A stretch of 32,000 bases of DNA from an uncultured archaeon. Lineage in GTDB: Archaea; Iainarchaeota; Iainarchaeia; Iainarchaeales; Iainarchaeaceae. Below, piece by piece: positions 4,529-29,995 of this stretch. A program made the position numbers and the translations under genes. How positions within the stretch are numbered: the first letter of the stretch is position 1; each line of letters begins with the position of its first letter. The stretch is from the NCBI GenBank assembly GCA_964577555.1, contig CAZNZM010000004.1, positions 87,671 to 119,670 on the forward strand. Direction: 5' to 3'. The notes beneath the pieces are model-generated. The model did not search any database, had not been told where the DNA came from, and saw only the letters and a program-made list of their open reading frames with translations.

Positions 4529-5179
4529 ATGAAGCAAAACAGCAGCATAATAGAAATAATAGAAAAAATGGTCAGGGACGGCGAACCAGAAGAAAAAATA
4601 TTAAAAACACTCCTCGAGCTCGGCGTGGAACCTGAAAAAGCAAAAAAACTGCTTCTGTTGGGGCAAGCAGATACATTTTCACTACTTAAAAGAGAAATAA
4701 GAAACATAGTACACGATGAATTAGAAAAAGAAAAACCAATGCTCAAAAAATTCATAGAAGAAGAAACAATACAAGCAAACTACGAAGCAAGACAAGAACT
4801 GACAAAAGCAGTAATAAGCGACCTAAAAGAATATGAAAAAGACATTTCAGGATACAACAAAACATTCCAAGAAAAAATTGAAGAAAATGTCAGAAAAATA
4901 ACCGAAATGAACGACAAACTAAAAATAAAACTAAACGAAATGGGAGAAAACCTTAGACAAGTACAAATAGACATGGATGAAATGAGAATAAAAGGAATAG
5001 GGTCAAGAAACAAACTAATAAGCAACGCACTCTGGCTATTAGGACTATTTTTCGGAGTTGGAACATTCTACATTTTCATCACAAGTTTCGGACAAGCACT
5101 AACAATCGACAACATAATAGTAATGATAACAATGGCGCTAATCACAATAACAATGCTTTTTGTGGCAACAATAATATGA
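4529..5179 (+). CDS. hypothetical coiled-coil protein with C-terminal TM helices (216 aa)
   Basis: N-terminal 'LLELGVEPEKAKKLL' UBA-like helix pair (a weak impression), long K/E heptad-like middle, two C-terminal hydrophobic helices. Confidence 0.6.
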   Translation: MKQNSSIIEIIEKMVRDGEPEEKILKTLLELGVEPEKAKKLLLLGQADTFSLLKREIRNIVHDELEKEKPMLKKFIEEETIQANYEARQELTKAVISDLKEYEKDISGYNKTFQEKIEENVRKITEMNDKLKIKLNEMGENLRQVQIDMDEMRIKGIGSRNKLISNALWLLGLFFGVGTFYIFITSFGQALTIDNIIVMITMALITITMLFVATII

Positions 5180-5640
5180 AAAAGCCAAAAACAAGTTCAA
5201 AAAAAACAAACAAAAAAATTAATTGAAAACTAAAAATGAAAACACGCTTCACTAAAAAAAACGGCTCTACAAGAAAAAGACCATAAACGATTGAATTTTA
5301 AAATTAAAAATTGACAAAAAAAACTTGGCTAAAAAAAAACAGACAAACAAAAATTCAAAAAAAACAAAAAAACGGCTCACAAAAACAAACAACAAAAAAA
5401 ACCAACCAAAAAAAAATAAGAAAAAAAATGACTTGCAAAAAAACAAAAAAAAATAACAAAAAAACTTGACAAGCAACATCAAAAAAACAAAATTGGCTTG
5501 CAAAAAAACAAGCCACAACAAAATAATTGACAAAAAAAATCGTCCAACAAAAAAACCAAAAAAACCGCAAAAAAATGGCTCACAAAAAACAAAAAAATAA
5601 TGACAAAAAAAGGCTCGCCAAAACAAATTTAAAAAAAATA
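5180..5640 (+). repeat. A-tract modular repeat locus A
   Basis: Cores at 5311-5316 (ttgaca), 5324-5330 (cttggct), 5373-5380 (cggctcac), 5429-5436 (tgacttgc), 5465-5474 (cttgacaagc), 5493-5501 (ttggcttgc), 5576-5583 (tggctcac) and 5612-5619 (ggctcgcc), each flanked by A6-A9 runs. 5488-5583 is near-identical to 23137-23233. Confidence 0.85.
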
Positions 5641-12085: not shown

Positions 12086-12530
12086 AAAAAAACAAAAAAA
12101 ATGAAACCAACAAACCAAAAAAAAAACAAAACTTCAAACAAAAAAAATACCAAACAAAAAATATCAAAAAAATGCCTAACAAAAAAATAAAAAAAATAAA
12201 ATAGATCAAAAAAAACTACTTGCAAAAAAACAAAACCCAATTAAAAAAACAACAAAAAAAACAAATTGAAAAAAAATAAATGAGAAAAAAAATTAAGGCA
12301 CACAAAGACAAAACAAAAAATAAATACCCAAAAAAATGAAATCAAACAAAAAAAATAAAGTTGCCAAAAAAAATGGCTTGCAAAAACAAAAAGAAAAAAA
12401 AGCAATTTGAATTTTCTTAAAAACAAAAAAAACACAAAAATCGGTCGACAAAAAAATGCCAAAAAAAACGAGACAAAGAAAAAAATGACACAAAAAAAAT
12501 AATTAGAAAATGGAAAAGACAAAGCCTCTA
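12086..12530 (+). repeat. A-tract modular repeat locus C
   Basis: 12216-12268 'ctacttgcaaaaaaacaaaacccaattaaaaaaacaac...' is a partial copy of the 18642-18737 / 23374-23456 module. Also 'tggcttgc' 12374-12381, 'tcggtcgacaaaaaaatgcc' and 'aatgacacaaaaaaaat'. Confidence 0.7.
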
Positions 12531-13527: not shown

Positions 13528-13815
13528 ATGGGAAGAAAAACACAAGAAGAAAAAGAATTTCTGATTTCACAAAGAAAAAAAACCGGGCCAGGTCTTACAA
13601 ACGCACCAGTCTGGATAATGCAAAAAGCAGGCAAAAGAATATACAACAAAAAAGCAAGAAAACACTGGAGAGAAACACACTTTGGACAAGAATTCAAGAA
13701 AAAACTAAAAGAACAAGGAAAAATAAAAAACACCAAAAAACCAAAAAGCGGCCACAAAAACAAAAGTGCAAAATTTAAACCAAAAAGATTCTACAACACG
13801 AGGGAATCAAAATGA
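13528..13815 (+). CDS. rpl39e: 50S ribosomal protein L39e with long basic C-terminal extension
   Basis: 'NAPVWIMQKAGKRIYNKKARKHWRET' resembles the eL39 core (VP.W...K....H.KRRHWRR). Synteny upstream of rpl31e. ATGA overlap with the next gene. Confidence 0.8.
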   Translation: MGRKTQEEKEFLISQRKKTGPGLTNAPVWIMQKAGKRIYNKKARKHWRETHFGQEFKKKLKEQGKIKNTKKPKSGHKNKSAKFKPKRFYNTRESK

Positions 13816-14243
13816 AAGGAGAGCAAGCAAATTACAACATATCGCTAGCAAAAGCATTTCTATATCCCCCAAAAAAAAGAATAATAAAAGCAATAGGTGT
13901 TATAAAAAAATTTGCAAAAAAACACACAAGAGCAAAAACAATAAATATAGCAAACGAAGTCAATGAGTACCTGCATAAAAATTCGAAAAACTTGCCAAGA
14001 AAAGTCAATGCAATCCTATTCAAAGAAAACGACAAAATAACAATATTCATGCAAAACGGAAAAGAACTAAAAACATACCTAAAAAAAAGAGAAGAAGAAA
14101 AGAAAAAAAAAGAAGAGAAAAAAGAAGAACAAAAAAAAGAAAAAAACGAAAAAGAAGAAACAGATAAAATAAAACTTGAAGAAAAAAAGAAAAAAGAAGA
14201 AGCCGCGGAAGCCTCACAAATAAAAAGAAAAACAAACAAGTGA
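13812..14243 (+). CDS. rpl31e: 50S ribosomal protein L31e with K/E-rich C-terminal tail
   Basis: 'YNISLAKAFLYPPKKRIIKAIGVIKKFAKKHT...INIANEVNEYLHKNSKNLPRKVNA' fits the eL31 pattern. Synteny L39e-L31e-aIF6. Confidence 0.88.
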   Translation: MKGEQANYNISLAKAFLYPPKKRIIKAIGVIKKFAKKHTRAKTINIANEVNEYLHKNSKNLPRKVNAILFKENDKITIFMQNGKELKTYLKKREEEKKKKEEKKEEQKKEKNEKEETDKIKLEEKKKKEEAAEASQIKRKTNK

Positions 14244-15584: not shown

Positions 15585-16889
15585 ATGTTCGACTTCCTAA
15601 AGAAAAAAATAACAAATTTTACAGACAAACTCAAAGAAGTACTACAAACAAAAAAAGAAGAAACAACAGAACAAAAAAAACAAATTGAACCTGAAAAAGA
15701 ACAAAAAGAACCAGAACAAACAATTAAAATAGAAAAAAACGAAAAAGAAACACAAGAAACAGAACAAAAACAAACTGAAAAAAAAGAAACAACACAACAA
15801 ATTCAAAAAACGTTGAAAGAACCAGAAAAATTTGAAAACTTAAAAGAAAAAACACAAACAAACATAGAACAAAAACATGAAACAAAACAAGAATCAAAAA
15901 CACAACCAATAGAAAAAAAAACATTCACAGAAATCATAAAAGGAATTTTCACGCAAAAACAGCCAACTGAAAAAAAAACAACACAAATAATTGAAGATAA
16001 AAGAGAACTCAAAGCAAAAACAGGAATACTGCAGAAAGTCACAAGCGCAGTAACTGGCAAAATAAAAATAAACGAAAAAGACACACAAAACTTTTTTGAC
16101 GAACTAGAACTAAGCCTCTTAGAAGCAGATGTAGAACAAGAAACAGCAACAGCAATAGTAAAACAACTCAAAAACCAATTAATCGGAAAAGAAATTTCCG
16201 CAAAAGAAGACCTAACCAGCTACCTTAACAATGAAATAAGAAAAGCGCTTTCAAAAGTAATGGAAACAGAAAAAATAAACATATCACAAATTGAAAAAAA
16301 ACCATTAAAAATATTATTCGTTGGCCCAAATGGTGCAGGAAAAACAACAACAATAGCAAAAATAGCAAACTACTTCCTGAAAACAAACAAAAGCGTTATA
16401 ATGGCTGCGGGTGACACTTTCAGGGCCGCATCAATAGAACAACTAGAAACACACGCAAACAAACTTGGGGTAAAAATAGTAAAACAAAACTATGGTTCAG
16501 ACCCAGCAGCAGTAGCATTCGACGCAGTAAAAGCAGCCGAAGCAAAAAACATAGATGTAGTACTTATAGACACTGCAGGAAGACAAGAAACAAACAAAAA
16601 CCTAATTGAAGAACTAAAAAAAATAGACAGAGTAATAAAACCAGACATAAAACTTTACGTAGGAGAAGCATATACAGGACAGGCATTACTAGAACAAGCA
16701 AGCGAATTCAACAAAGCAATAGGTATAGATGGATTCATACTTACAAAAATAGACGCAGACGCAAAAGGTGGAACAGCAATTTCACTACTTTACACACTCA
16801 AAAAACCAATAGTTTTCATAGGAACCGGACAAAACTATGACGATTTAATAGAATTCAAACCAGAATTCATAATAGACAGAATAATATAA
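15585..16889 (+). CDS. ftsY: signal recognition particle receptor FtsY
   Basis: NG domain motifs 'ILFVGPNGAGKTTTIAKIA', 'DTFRAASIEQL', 'DTAGR' and 'TKIDADAKGG'. Long K/E/T/Q-rich A-domain at the N-terminus. Confidence 0.95.
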   Translation: MFDFLKKKITNFTDKLKEVLQTKKEETTEQKKQIEPEKEQKEPEQTIKIEKNEKETQETEQKQTEKKETTQQIQKTLKEPEKFENLKEKTQTNIEQKHETKQESKTQPIEKKTFTEIIKGIFTQKQPTEKKTTQIIEDKRELKAKTGILQKVTSAVTGKIKINEKDTQNFFDELELSLLEADVEQETATAIVKQLKNQLIGKEISAKEDLTSYLNNEIRKALSKVMETEKINISQIEKKPLKILFVGPNGAGKTTTIAKIANYFLKTNKSVIMAAGDTFRAASIEQLETHANKLGVKIVKQNYGSDPAAVAFDAVKAAEAKNIDVVLIDTAGRQETNKNLIEELKKIDRVIKPDIKLYVGEAYTGQALLEQASEFNKAIGIDGFILTKIDADAKGGTAISLLYTLKKPIVFIGTGQNYDDLIEFKPEFIIDRII

Positions 16890-18335: not shown

Positions 18336-18367
18336 ACAAAAAAATAATTTAATGCATACTAAATATT

Positions 18368-18388
18368 CTCGGCACTAAAAGTGCCGGG
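18368..18388 (+). terminator. GC-rich stem-loop downstream of the 68-aa gene (terminator-like or processing site)
   Basis: ctcggcact-aaa-agtgccggg gives a 9-bp stem including one G-U pair, followed by 'cttt'. It stands out in the AT-rich context. Confidence 0.35.
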
Positions 18389-18390
18389 CT

Positions 18391-18870
18391 TTACAAAAAC
18401 AAAATAAAAAAACCCAACTATCAGTATCTTAAAACACAAAAATTTTTTGCTAGCCAAACTTGAAAAAAAAGGAAAAAACTAAAACCTGACACACAAAAAC
18501 AAAAAAATAAAATTAACCAAACAAAAACGAATAACAAAAAATCACTAAAACTACAAAACAAAAAAAAAAGACACAAAATAAAGTTAAATTTCAAAAAAAA
18601 AATAATAAAAATAGCATAAAAAAAATTGGCATACAAAAAAAGGCTCGCCAAAAACAAACAACAAAAAAAACAAAATCCAATTAAAAAAAACAAAAAATAA
18701 TGACAAAAAAAACTTGGCTAGCAATATCAAAAAAAACAGCACACAAAAACAAAAAAAACAACTTGACAAAAAAAACAATTAAAAATTAAAAACTGATTTT
18801 ACAAAACAAAACAGCCACCAACAAAATTTCGAAAAACATCAAAAAAGCAAAGTAAACCAAAAGAATTATC
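18391..18870 (+). repeat. A-tract modular repeat locus D
   Basis: 18642-18737 'ggctcgccaaaaacaaacaacaaaaaaaacaaaatccaattaaaaaaaacaaaaaataatgacaaaaaaaacttggctagcaatatcaaaaaaaac' aligns with 23374-23456. Also 'ttgctagcc' 18448-18456 and 'cttgacaaaaaaaac' around 18762. Confidence 0.8.
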
Positions 18871-18930
18871 TGCACTAACCCCTAAAAATGCCGAAAACAA
18901 TGCAATTTGCTTATTAAAAATACATTACAC

Positions 18931-18945
18931 ATTTAATTTTAAAAG
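18931..18945 (+). promoter_or_regulatory. TATA-like box for the srp54 operon (leaderless)
   Basis: 'atttaattttaaaag' is centred about 25 nt upstream of ATG 18962. No SD. Confidence 0.45.
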
Positions 18946-18961
18946 CAAAGAGTGATAAAAA

Positions 18962-20311
18962 ATGGGTTTAGGCGAAAGCCTCAGAAAAGCAGTCGAAAAA
19001 ATAAGAAATTCAAGCACTCTGGACAGAGAAACAGTAAAAGAAGCAATCAAGGAACTACAAAGAGCATTAATCTCGGCAGACGTAGAAATAACATTAGTAC
19101 TAAAACTAAGCAAAGAAATAGAAGAAGAAGCATTCAAAGACCTACCAGAAGGAATAAGCAGAAAAGAACACGTAATCAAAACAACACACGACAAACTTAC
19201 AGAAATGCTAGGAGGCACGACAAAACCGCCACAACAACCAAAAAGAATACTCTTGTTAGGTTTATTCGGGCAAGGAAAAACCACGACAGCAGGAAAATTG
19301 GCAAAATGGTACTCAAAAAGAGGAAATAAAGTAGGGTTGATAGGAGCCGATGTTTTCAGACCTGCGGCAATAGAACAATTAAGAACAATCGCGGAAAAAG
19401 CAAAAGCGGAGTTTTATGGCGATGAAAAAGAAAAAAGCGCCGCAAAAATAGCAAAAACAGGAATTGAAAAACTAAAAAATTGCGACATAATAATATGCGA
19501 CTCGGCAGGCAGAAGCGCACTAGACCAGGAACTAATAAAAGAAATAAAAGAAATAAACGAAGCATTCAAACCAGAACAAAAATGGCTTGTAATAAGCGCC
19601 GATGTAGGACAAATAGCCAAAAAACAAGCAAATGCATTCCATGAAGCAATCGGAATAAACGGCGTAATACTGACAAAAACAGACGGCTCTGCAAAAGGAG
19701 GAGGAGCACTCGCAGCATGCAAAGCAACAGGAGCCAACGTTTATTTCATAGGCACAGGAGAAAAAATAGATGACTTCCAAGAATTCGATTCAACAAGATA
19801 CTTGAGCAGAATAATGGGCTATGGCGACCTGCAAGCACTACTTGAAAAAGCAAAAGAAATACAAGAAGACCAAGGAATAGAAGAACAAGAATTAATACTA
19901 AAAGACTTCAACCTGGCCAATTTCTACAAACAACTCAAAACAGCAAGAAAAATGGGGCCAATAAACAAAATAATGGAAATGTTAGGGCTAAGCCAAAAAA
20001 TGCCAAAAGAACTAATGGAACTAGGAGAACAAAAACTAGACAAATACGGTTATATGATAGACTCAATGACAAAATACGAAAAAGAACACCCAGAACTAAT
20101 TAACAAAAGCAGAATAGCAAGAATTGCAAAAGGAAGCGGAACAACACAAGAAGAAGTAAGAGAACTACTAAAAAACTTCAAAAAAATGAAAAAAATGTTC
20201 AAACAACTAAGCAACATAGACACTGAAAAAATTGAAAAAGGCGATGCCGAAGCACTGCAAAAAAAACTTTACAACACATTCAAAAAAAAGAAAAAATTCA
20301 AAATAAGGTGA
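18962..20311 (+). CDS. srp54: signal recognition particle protein SRP54
   Basis: 'LLLGLFGQGKTTTAGKLA', 'DVFRPAAIEQL', 'DSAGR' and 'TKTDGSAKGGGAL', then the Met-rich M domain 'MGPINKIMEMLGL' and a basic C-terminus. Confidence 0.97.
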   Translation: MGLGESLRKAVEKIRNSSTLDRETVKEAIKELQRALISADVEITLVLKLSKEIEEEAFKDLPEGISRKEHVIKTTHDKLTEMLGGTTKPPQQPKRILLLGLFGQGKTTTAGKLAKWYSKRGNKVGLIGADVFRPAAIEQLRTIAEKAKAEFYGDEKEKSAAKIAKTGIEKLKNCDIIICDSAGRSALDQELIKEIKEINEAFKPEQKWLVISADVGQIAKKQANAFHEAIGINGVILTKTDGSAKGGGALAACKATGANVYFIGTGEKIDDFQEFDSTRYLSRIMGYGDLQALLEKAKEIQEDQGIEEQELILKDFNLANFYKQLKTARKMGPINKIMEMLGLSQKMPKELMELGEQKLDKYGYMIDSMTKYEKEHPELINKSRIARIAKGSGTTQEEVRELLKNFKKMKKMFKQLSNIDTEKIEKGDAEALQKKLYNTFKKKKKFKIR

Positions 20312-23090: not shown

Positions 23091-23530
23091 AAAAAATATC
23101 GCCAAAACAAAAAAACCAATCAAAAAAATAAGAAAACAAAATTGGCTCACAAAAAAACAAGCCACAACAAAATAATTGACAAAAAAAATCGTCCAACAAA
23201 AAAACCAAAAAAAACCACAAAAAAATGGCTCACCAAAAAAAACAAAAATTGTCTAAAAAAAGGCTCACAAAAAACAACAAAAAAACAGCCCGCAAAACAA
23301 ATCCAAAAATAAAAAAAACAACCAGACAAAACAAAAAACAAAATTAATTACAAAAAAAAGACCACAAAAAAAATTGGCTCACAAAAAAAACAAAACCAAA
23401 TTAAAAAAAACAAAAAAATAACAAAAAAACTTGACAAGCAACATCAAAAAAAACAAGCCATGAAAAAAAATTCAAATAAAAAACAAATCACTCCTCAAAA
23501 AAATGGCTAGCCAAAAAAAAGACGTAAAAA
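23091..23530 (+). repeat. A-tract modular repeat locus E
   Basis: Cores at 23142-23150, 23226-23233, 23262-23268 and 23374-23382 (ggctcac types), 23430-23439 (cttgacaagc) and 23504-23513 (tggctagcca, a perfect palindrome). 23137-23233 is near-identical to 5488-5583. Confidence 0.85.
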
Positions 23531-23567
23531 AAGATTGATTAAAATAAAATCATTGAAAAATAATCAC

Positions 23568-28790: not shown

Positions 28791-29792
28791 ATGCAAAGAT
28801 TTTCACTAAATGAAATAACAGAACAGGAAATATTCAAAACAATCTCAAAAGCAATAACAGAAACAGAATTTTCAACTTTTACAATAGGAATAACCTCAAA
28901 AAACCCTGAATTAAAAAACAGCTTCAGCCAAAAAATCAAAGAATACATGACAACAACACTTTCTAAAAAATTCACAAACAAAAATTTCGAACTGTACATC
29001 CTAATCAACATTGACAAAGGAATTTTAGAAATAAAAACAACACCAATTTTCATATATGGACACTACAACAAATTCTCCAGAAACATTGCACAAACATTCC
29101 ACTATTGCTTCAAATGCAAAGGAAAAGGATGCAAATACTGTAAAGGCACAGGCAAACTCTCAGAACATTCAGTTCAAGAAATTTTAGAAAAGTATTTTAT
29201 TCCGGCATTTAAAGCCACAAAATCAAAATTTCACGGATGCGGCAGAGAAGACGTGGACGTCAGAATGCTTGGTTCAGGCAGACCATTCATAATAGAACTA
29301 ATCAACCCAATAAAAAGAAATTTTGACTTGGCTTTGCTTGAAAAAAAAATAAATTCAAAACACAAAAAAATAATTTCCATATCAAATTTAAGATTTTCCG
29401 AGAAAAAAGAAGTTGAGCGCATCAAAAACTCAGAATTTGAAAAAATATACTCGGCATTGTGTCATTATGAAGGTAATTTAAAAGAAACAACACTTCATGG
29501 GTTAATAGGCAAAGAATACCTAATTTTTCAAAGAACACCTCAAAGAGTGGAAAAGCGCAGAACTGACAAAGAAAGAATAAAAAAGGCAAAATTACTATCA
29601 GCAAAAATAATAGGAAAAAACCTTTTTTCAATTGAAATAAAATCCTCACATGGACTTTATATAAAAGAATTCATTTCAGGCGACAACGGAAGAACAAAAC
29701 CAAGCATTTCAGAACTTCTAGGAGTAAAATGTGTTTGCAAAGAACTGGATGTTTTAGAAATACTCATCGAACAAAACACAAATAAAAAATAA
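28791..29792 (+). CDS. pus10: tRNA pseudouridine synthase Pus10
   Basis: 'CFKCKGKGCKYCKGTGK' followed by 'FHGCGREDVDVRMLGSGRPFIIEL' (the catalytic Asp motif of Pus10). Short N-terminal region. Confidence 0.88.
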   Translation: MQRFSLNEITEQEIFKTISKAITETEFSTFTIGITSKNPELKNSFSQKIKEYMTTTLSKKFTNKNFELYILINIDKGILEIKTTPIFIYGHYNKFSRNIAQTFHYCFKCKGKGCKYCKGTGKLSEHSVQEILEKYFIPAFKATKSKFHGCGREDVDVRMLGSGRPFIIELINPIKRNFDLALLEKKINSKHKKIISISNLRFSEKKEVERIKNSEFEKIYSALCHYEGNLKETTLHGLIGKEYLIFQRTPQRVEKRRTDKERIKKAKLLSAKIIGKNLFSIEIKSSHGLYIKEFISGDNGRTKPSISELLGVKCVCKELDVLEILIEQNTNKK

Positions 29793-29995
29793 AAATTGAC
29801 AAAAAAACAACAAAAAAATTGTCTCGCAAAAAAATAAACAAATCAAAAAAACAAAAAAAACAATAAAAAATTAAGAAAAAAATGACTTACAAAAAAAAAC
29901 AAAATTCAATTAAAAAAAATAATTGACAAAAAAAAAGAAAAACGACAAAAAAACAAAAACTAATTATAAAATTAAAAAAAAATGGCTCAAAAAGG
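29793..29995 (+). repeat. A-tract modular repeat locus F
   Basis: 'aaaaattgacaaaaaaac', 'ttgtctcgc' 29819-29827, and 29883-29937 'tgacttacaaaaaaaaacaaaattcaattaaaaaaaataattgacaaaaaaaaag', a partial copy of the locus D/E module. Confidence 0.7.

Follow-up and report, generated by a model that had tools for sequence, protein, structure and literature searches.

A mosaic family of intergenic repeats in the A-rich spacers of an Iainarchaeota genome

Introduction

In Escherichia coli and its relatives, REP units combine with short linker motifs into BIMEs, bacterial interspersed mosaic elements that occupy intergenic sites, often following the 3' ends of genes. They are mosaics of a limited number of short motifs in partly conserved order, their modules are gained and lost between loci, and they are lineage-specific, with tens to hundreds of copies. 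All of this also holds for the family of repeats described here, which occupies the spacers of an uncultured archaeon of the Iainarchaeaceae. Unlike BIMEs, however, the family has neither a palindromic REP hairpin nor a RAYT/Y1 transposase, its motifs are separated by runs of seven or eight adenines (A7-8), its host is archaeal, and it keeps a single polarity tied to strand skew where BIMEs alternate in orientation.

Several other classes of DNA invite comparison. MITEs are recognized by terminal inverted repeats, a target-site duplication and defined ends; none of these was seen in the family, whose breakpoints vary, and inverted ends could not be accommodated in DNA so strictly A-rich on one strand. 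Descent from IS200/IS605 elements would call for TnpA (Y1) or TnpB and for subterminal hairpins, and retroposed A-tailed sequences would call for a reverse transcriptase (PF00078); none was found here. Minisatellite-like or low-complexity intergenic DNA resembles the family in its local tandem blocks and in the loss of units between A-runs, but here spacers of different contigs also have blocks in common, up to 98% identical, which slippage alone is insufficient to produce.

Two further systems bear on function and on origin. Archaeal transcription termination uses tracts of at least four U, more tracts giving stronger termination, and aCPSF1/FttA binds U-rich RNA (PMC8716108, PMC11616081). 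The spacers described here share with such terminators T7-8 runs on their T-rich strand, above the U4 minimum, and the genome encodes a beta-CASP protein. The terminators have one or two tracts, however, whereas each spacer has 10-40 candidate tracts; moreover, the genes that might use such spacers as terminators show no excess of them at their 3' ends, and orthologous sites in relatives lack them. With regard to origin, template switching between diverged repeats during break-induced replication in yeast gives rise to mosaics with junctions in short shared stretches (PMC4215184); the process was shown experimentally in yeast, whereas here we infer it from the mosaic pattern and the polarity alone. 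Our search of the literature found no description of spacers of this kind in DPANN or Iainarchaeota-type genomes.

Results

The window and its islands

The genome is archaeal and roughly 1 Mb in size; its assembly comprises 979 kb in 15 contigs, with a completeness of 95.5%. The window, by which we mean the whole stretch of 32,000 nucleotides analysed (C4:87671-119670), has an AT skew of about +0.5 on its + strand. The flanking genes, which were positioned with a codon-model gene caller, are archaeal housekeeping genes (SRP54, Hjc, PcrB/GGGP synthase, Pus10, TRAM and OB-fold proteins), and Rfam 15 at gathering threshold returned only three tRNAs in the window and no match to the modules of loci D and E. 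Two adjacent open reading frames on the + strand, 1752-2015 and 2034-2456, were called as two genes.

Islands were defined as non-coding stretches with at least 66% A on one strand, and there are 107 of them, totalling 39 kb or 4% of the genome. Two A-rich stretches in the window (14048-14205 and 15620-15941) could pass for spacers, and an open-frame test tells them apart: they are coding, with open frames rich in Lys, Glu and Gln codons, and sit inside the genes at 13812-14243 and 15585-16889, respectively. The features of the repeat-bearing spacers are collected in Table 1.

Table 1. Coordinates of repeat-derived features (window numbering, except where a contig is named).
Feature	Position	Strand	Remarks
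GGCTCGCC core, upstream of D composite	18642..18649	+	direct reading
Sub-module 1, D copy, CAAAATCCAATTAAAAAAAA	18671..18690	+	
Linker CAAAAAATAATGAC + A8 between sub-modules, D	18691..18712	+	four-copy alignment
Sub-module 2, D copy, CTTGGCTAGCAATATCAAAAA	18713..18733	+	same sequence as C1:58512 copy
Whole repeat-derived patch in D	18661..18810	+	covered by up to 6 other islands, score at least 40
TTGGCTCAC core, upstream of E composite	23374..23382	+	direct reading
Sub-module 1, E copy, CAAAACCAAATTAAAAAAAA	23391..23410	+	
Sub-module 2, E copy, CTTGACAAGCAACATCAAAAA	23430..23450	+	same sequence as B copy
Repeat-derived part of E spacer	23104..23480	+	up to 9 partner islands
Repeat-derived part of locus B	5306..5625	+	sub-module 2 at 5465-5485, without sub-module 1
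Sub-module 1, locus C, 1 mismatch	12231..12250	+	CTACTTGC + A7 before copy
Repeat-derived patch, locus C	12118-12276		
Sub-module 1, locus F	29900..29919	+	followed by TAATTGAC-A9 (alternative downstream module)
Repeat-derived patch, locus F	29773-29940		
Repeat-derived island at contig end	31700..31986	+	
Islands at contig ends, examples	C4:1-162, C4:119337-119656, C10:1-549, C7:44-446		

A composite module in loci D and E

The first-pass annotation had aligned 18671-18740 in locus D with 23391-23458 in locus E. The strings it named for the two loci lie exactly at these coordinates, and the alignment was reproduced with 88.5% identity over 78 columns and a raw score of 47. For comparison, islands were simulated from Markov models that had been fitted to the real ones; over about 5,700 island pairs the top score was 45-50 at order 5 and 47-67 at order 3. 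Taken alone, the D-E pair is of moderate significance, which we estimate at roughly 1e-3 per pair. A GGCTC(G/A)C core with an A-run had been placed ahead of the module. Such a core is present, but at D it is CAAACAAC + A8 that directly precedes sub-module 1, and the GGCTCGCC core sits 21 nt further upstream; GGCTCRC-type cores number 134 in the islands.

The counts of the individual words are far more telling than this one alignment. Sub-module 1 (CAAAAYYMAATTAAAAAAAA) had been reported to recur at 12231, 18671, 23391 and 29900, and all four matches were recovered with at most one mismatch, against 0.13 in shuffles of the whole window. Its 19-mer CAAAAYYMAATTAAAAAAA has ten copies in the genome, all on the A-rich strand (one on C1, three on C2, five on C4 and one on C10), and nine of them fall within the 39 kb of islands, where island-trained Markov models of order 2-4 predict 0.03-0.08. 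The 12-mer core CAAAATCCAATT of the D copy is found also in the copies at C2:7572, C2:7277 and C10:211. Sub-module 2 (CTTGRCWAGCAAYATCAAAAA) has four genomic copies, at C1:58512 and at 5465, 18713 and 23430 of the window, with an expectation of 0.0, and three of the four come after a copy of sub-module 1. Its variants pair as D with C1:58512 and E with B, and differ at 4 of 16 core positions. Thus the recurrent words far exceed an A-rich Markov background in a genome-wide survey (9 against 0.03-0.08, and 4 against 0.0), they are not limited to one region of one contig, sub-module 1 being present on four, and the contention that the spacers are not generic poly-A holds.

Aligning the four copies of sub-module 2 reveals the order of the composite: an 8-mer core (TGGCTCAC, CTACTTGC or TGACTTGC), A7-8, sub-module 1, A7-8, a variable linker (C-A6-TAAYGAC or TGAC-A8-TAATTGAC), A7-8, sub-module 2 and A8. 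The complete order occurs at three sites, D, E and C1:58512, among which the length of the linker varies. Gain or loss of modules between loci, as originally proposed, is borne out by locus B, which lacks sub-module 1, and by seven copies of sub-module 1 that enter another chain, continuing with TAATTGAC-A9-GAATTC-A8-G-A5-TGAC-A7-TGGCTCGCC. Sub-module 1 therefore has at least two contexts, of which the composite is one. Predicted folds were no better than those of shuffled sequences for the - strand of D (z = +0.55) and for both strands of E (z = -0.08 and -0.83); the + strand of D reached z = -2.45 through a long-range pairing of GGCTCGCC with TTGGCTAGC that is absent in E.

A wider mosaic family

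When the islands were split at A-runs of at least 5 nt, 2,580 cores were obtained, among them TGGCTCAC, CTTGACAAG and TTGGCTAGC. With 1,318 distinct cores, about half of all cores being unique, the vocabulary can hardly be called small, as the earlier description had it. The order of neighbours is kept above chance, in that repeated neighbouring core pairs account for 502 tokens, against 150 +/- 13 with the cores shuffled; the modules have no fixed ends. At the level of whole islands, 193 pairs score at least 50, compared to 0-25 in simulations, and identity is 93-98% over 100-285 nt in the best of them, some with the two islands on different contigs.

Each island is only partly repeat-derived, and three of the nine non-coding islands of the window (at 1115, 9007 and 17263) have no partner at all. 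In the D spacer (18336-18961), everything outside the repeat-derived patch, including the left 320 nt, is unique A-rich DNA, and the best partners of D are C1:58440-58736 (91.5% over 82 nt) and C1:137421-138110 (93.7% over 63 nt). The E spacer (23091-23567), which separates an epimerase gene (+) from PcrB (-), is 90.8% identical to locus B over 142 nt, and a comparison of locus B with C2:121274 shows a TTCAATT-A8 unit to be absent between two A-runs. The breakpoints of homology differ for every pair, so that common termini are absent, and they lie mostly inside A-runs; this last point is weak evidence, since local alignments of A-rich DNA tend to stop there anyway. Tandem Repeats Finder (TRF) detected tandem organization on a local scale at E, F, B, C and the contig-end island, in 2-3 copies with 70-80% matches and a period of 35-37 or 63-66 nt, the D composite itself being non-tandem. 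Taken together, the D/E stretch is best read as one recombinant arrangement of a species-specific, non-autonomous mosaic repeat family in A-rich spacers.

Polarity, strand skew and A-run length

Contigs C2-C4 carry 91 A-rich or T-rich islands, every one of which has the polarity of its contig's skew; the counts of GGCTCRC on these contigs are 33:1, 2:32 and 1:33. On contig C1 the polarity of the islands flips with the sign of the AT skew at about 150 kb. The skew there passes from +0.1 to -0.3 to -0.5 over approximately 148-152 kb, and this switch may mark an origin or terminus of replication, or it may reflect a join in the scaffold. The density of islands tracks the local skew measured outside them (rho 0.57, p = 3e-6).

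The A-runs of the islands peak at 7-8 nt, the counts for lengths 5 to 10 being 424, 281, 652, 818, 281 and 41. Two genomes of the same genus (G001 and G002), whose spacers are A-rich with almost no repeated cores, have the ceiling at 9-10 nt as well but a mere shoulder at 7-8, the A7-8 peak being far stronger here than in relatives. The abrupt stop at 9-10 nt in three members of the genus suggests a homopolymer length ceiling in the lineage. A weak quasi-period of about 15 nt was seen in the islands of this genome only and is absent in a relative. Helical phasing of A-tracts (DNA curvature) was considered and rejected, because this sole periodicity is no multiple of the helical repeat.

Islands and the ends of genes

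Islands adjoin the 3' ends of genes with a median gap of 0-7 nt, and leave 45-75 nt before gene starts. When each island was placed in its A-rich orientation and the left-hand gene was scored for a sense strand that is the A-rich strand (an A-sense gene), 63 of 82 were of this kind (odds ratio 2.7, p = 2e-4). Islands are commonest in convergent gene pairs (21%), where their median distance from the T-sense gene is 0 nt, and their frequency at the 3' ends of T-sense genes is 13%, against 12% upstream of A-sense genes. The - strand of the islands at the window loci carries T7-8 runs and thus the four or more consecutive T of an archaeal U-tract terminator.

Genome-wide, a T5+ run lies within 50 nt of the stop codon in 23-28% of A-sense genes and in 73-87% of T-sense genes, and in the latter its median distance from the stop is 13-20 nt, whether an island follows or not. 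Examples in the window of A-sense stops with no oligo-T nearby are those at 5179, 12085, 23090 and 29792.

In the D spacer, a GC-rich hairpin, CGGCAC-TAAAA-GTGCCG followed by GGCTTT, is found at 18371-18387, 35 nt past the stop of a 78-residue open reading frame, and a T6 run (18444-18449) lies 70 nt beyond it, upstream of the repeat patch. Hairpin and T6 run together may mark the end of the transcript of this frame.

Relatives and independent samples

The modules appear to be confined to this species. The word GGCTCRCMAAAAAA occurs 117 times in the genome, compared with 0-3 copies per genome in 30 relatives, of which four belong to the same genus, and no module word was found above chance in these relatives or in the public collections searched. 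The one match to sub-module 1 in a relative, at G001:C81, is in an unremarkable spacer where the neighbouring modules are absent, and was judged to be chance. Scans of metagenome contigs for sub-module 2 and of genome contigs for sub-module 1 + GAC-A7 gave only unrelated matches that are not A-rich; the coverage of these scans may not have extended to records from the genome of the window itself. BLAST of the E island against relatives returned other A-rich spacers at 66-76% identity, which we attribute to composition and not to homology.

On a syntenic contig of the same genus, the length of the spacer is kept in 29 of the 31 gene pairs that are adjacent in both genomes. The two exceptions are precisely the pairs with island spacers (D, 626 against about 231 nt; E, 477 against about 0 nt). 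In four more relatives the 3'-3' gap between the epimerase gene and PcrB is about 40-185 nt or less, and in all the E spacer is absent or short in five relatives. From these comparisons, the islands are a derived expansion, and the same neighbouring genes do without them elsewhere.

Wherever they overlap the window, sequences from two JGI samples (3300043177 and 3300043267) and from the Logan run SRR12686701 are 100% identical to it. Two of these assemblies cover D fully and one covers E fully, and among the three there is no variation of module content over D and E; such identical assemblies lend no population support to ongoing gain or loss of modules. Logan contigs (k=31) end or start at 18735, 18746, 23179 and 23423: at D one contig ends at 18735 and the next begins at 18746, and at E one begins at 23423. 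These breaks fall at or inside modules common to other loci, as expected if the modules are true repeats in the reads. Of the 30 contig ends in the assembly, 10 are no more than 300 nt from an island, whereas such DNA makes up only 4% of the genome. Since islands break assembly, their true amount is probably underestimated.

Discussion

The best reading of these data, and in our judgement probably the correct one, is that the D/E family arose through templated copying of patches together with slippage at A-runs, and that it has no sequence-specific function. Both the copying and the lack of function are what we infer from the patterns described, no copying event having been observed. The spacers would originate by an extreme, strand-asymmetric drift towards A, in which A-runs would accumulate at lengths of 7-8 nt, held below a limit of about 9-10. 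Blocks comprising a single unit or several, each unit a core with its A-run, would then be copied between spacers by DNA synthesis primed by homology or microhomology, candidate processes being gene conversion and template switching during repair or replication, and would be duplicated or deleted locally through slippage between A-runs. Because an A-rich strand can anneal only to a T-rich one, the copies would keep the polarity of the recipient spacer without any need for a transposase. Islands would lie where extra DNA is tolerated, directly behind the 3' ends of genes, and the stacks of T7-8 on the other strand would be a by-product. Copying with slippage explains mosaics whose breakpoints vary, a polarity that is absolute and the missing mobilizing enzyme, as well as words that are absent in relatives and islands that are absent at orthologous sites. 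The modules themselves most likely have no sequence-specific function. The A-sense enrichment and the sharp peak at 7-8 nt are not predicted by a purely neutral model, however, and some selection on the length or position of the tracts is therefore possible.

Selection could have acted on transcription. The islands might be one-way barriers, in which stacks of U7-8 encoded on the T-rich strand are recognized by aCPSF1/FttA and halt an antisense polymerase entering the 3' end of an A-strand gene, the cores being passengers. This would agree with the literature on U-tract termination, with a beta-CASP domain in a 639-residue open frame of aCPSF1-like size, with the peak of A-runs at 7-8 nt and the placement of islands at gene 3' ends, behind A-sense genes and in convergent pairs, and with the scarcity of T5+ near A-sense stops and its regular presence near T-sense stops. 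Yet T-sense genes possess their own T5+ irrespective of islands, islands are in no excess at T-sense 3' ends relative to positions upstream of A-sense genes, in relatives the same convergent pair persists without an island, its genes 0-185 nt apart, and 10-40 tracts per island far exceed the two reported as sufficient; we consider barriers of this sort rather unlikely. A version that joins selection to copying, which we hold to be improbable, would make the arrays of core + A7-8 a polarity-locked punctuation that lets sense polymerases pass and stops antisense ones. One strand could not keep oligo-T, so that its genes would mostly be without terminators of their own, and the arrays would be renewed by transposase-free templated copying; hence the words would turn over between species while the length and position of the tracts are kept. 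The cores could also be arrays of sites for a DNA-binding protein, or phased A-tracts could organize chromatin, for example as histone-free linkers. Short dyads do occur among the cores (CTTG-A-CAAG, GCTAGC within TTGGCTAGC, GGC-N2-GCC), the genome encodes a histone-fold gene, and the quasi-period of 15 nt is absent in a relative; but this period is no multiple of the helical repeat, relatives of the same genus keep the same genes without the cores, orthologous sites are without islands, and a site array is hard to reconcile with cores of which about half are unique or with a sub-module 2 whose variants differ at a quarter of their core positions, all of which makes such roles quite improbable.

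The dispersal of copies over many contigs, some 93-98% identical, recalls non-autonomous mobile elements of the MITE, REP/RAYT or IS200/IS605 type, moved by an enzyme acting on single-stranded DNA at the replication fork. Insertion of the IS200/IS605 type is known for a strict polarity relative to strand skew, and the modules display just such a polarity. A search of the genome for three families of mobilizing enzymes, however, gave no match to Y1 transposase/RAYT (PF01797), although the genome is 95.5% complete and an identical search did detect the family in 6 of 14 control genomes, and none to reverse transcriptase (PF00078) or TnpB (PF07282). Together with breakpoints that differ in every pair and the lack of common ends, of terminal inverted repeats and of stable hairpins, this leaves mobility of that type very improbable. 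The modules may alternatively act as RNA, in stability or factor binding, if transcription of the upstream gene runs on into the island to give a long A/C-rich 3' tail, or if promoter-like AATTAAAAAAAA words start transcription there. That islands start 0-7 nt past A-sense stop codons and that A-sense genes mostly have no nearby oligo-T would fit such tails, but between the upstream gene and the D patch there intervene the hairpin and T6 run described above, no conserved structure was seen, and FttA prefers U-rich to A/C-rich RNA, so that we regard a role at the RNA level as highly improbable. The related idea that A/C-rich island RNA is a loading site for FttA/aCPSF1 was excluded, as the factor binds U-rich RNA (PMC8716108, PMC11616081). 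Finally, the resemblance could be a chance product of low complexity or an artefact of assembly, given that the D-E pair scores at the upper edge of the Markov simulations and that islands break assemblies. The word counts, the third full copy on another contig, the identical sequence in assemblies from other samples and the synteny of the flanking genes with relatives refute this, and its probability is close to nil.

If templated copying and slippage are indeed responsible, the family would be a natural example of dispersed repeats that spread without a transposase, and copying between spacers so extreme in strand composition would be enough to explain their strict single polarity. This bears on how reduced archaeal genomes may still gain non-coding DNA, here 4% of the total. 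The fact that 10 of 30 contig ends lie in or near islands also matters for the assembly of such genomes. A side result may outweigh the modules themselves: A-sense genes are mostly without the oligo-T thought to be needed for archaeal termination, and the organism would thus be a natural test case for how transcription ends in archaea without U-tracts.

Among the genes around locus D, two members of the SRP-GTPase family lie 2 kb apart, an FtsY-like gene (15585-16889, 434 residues) and SRP54 (18962-20311, 449 residues), and this arrangement is retained in other assemblies.
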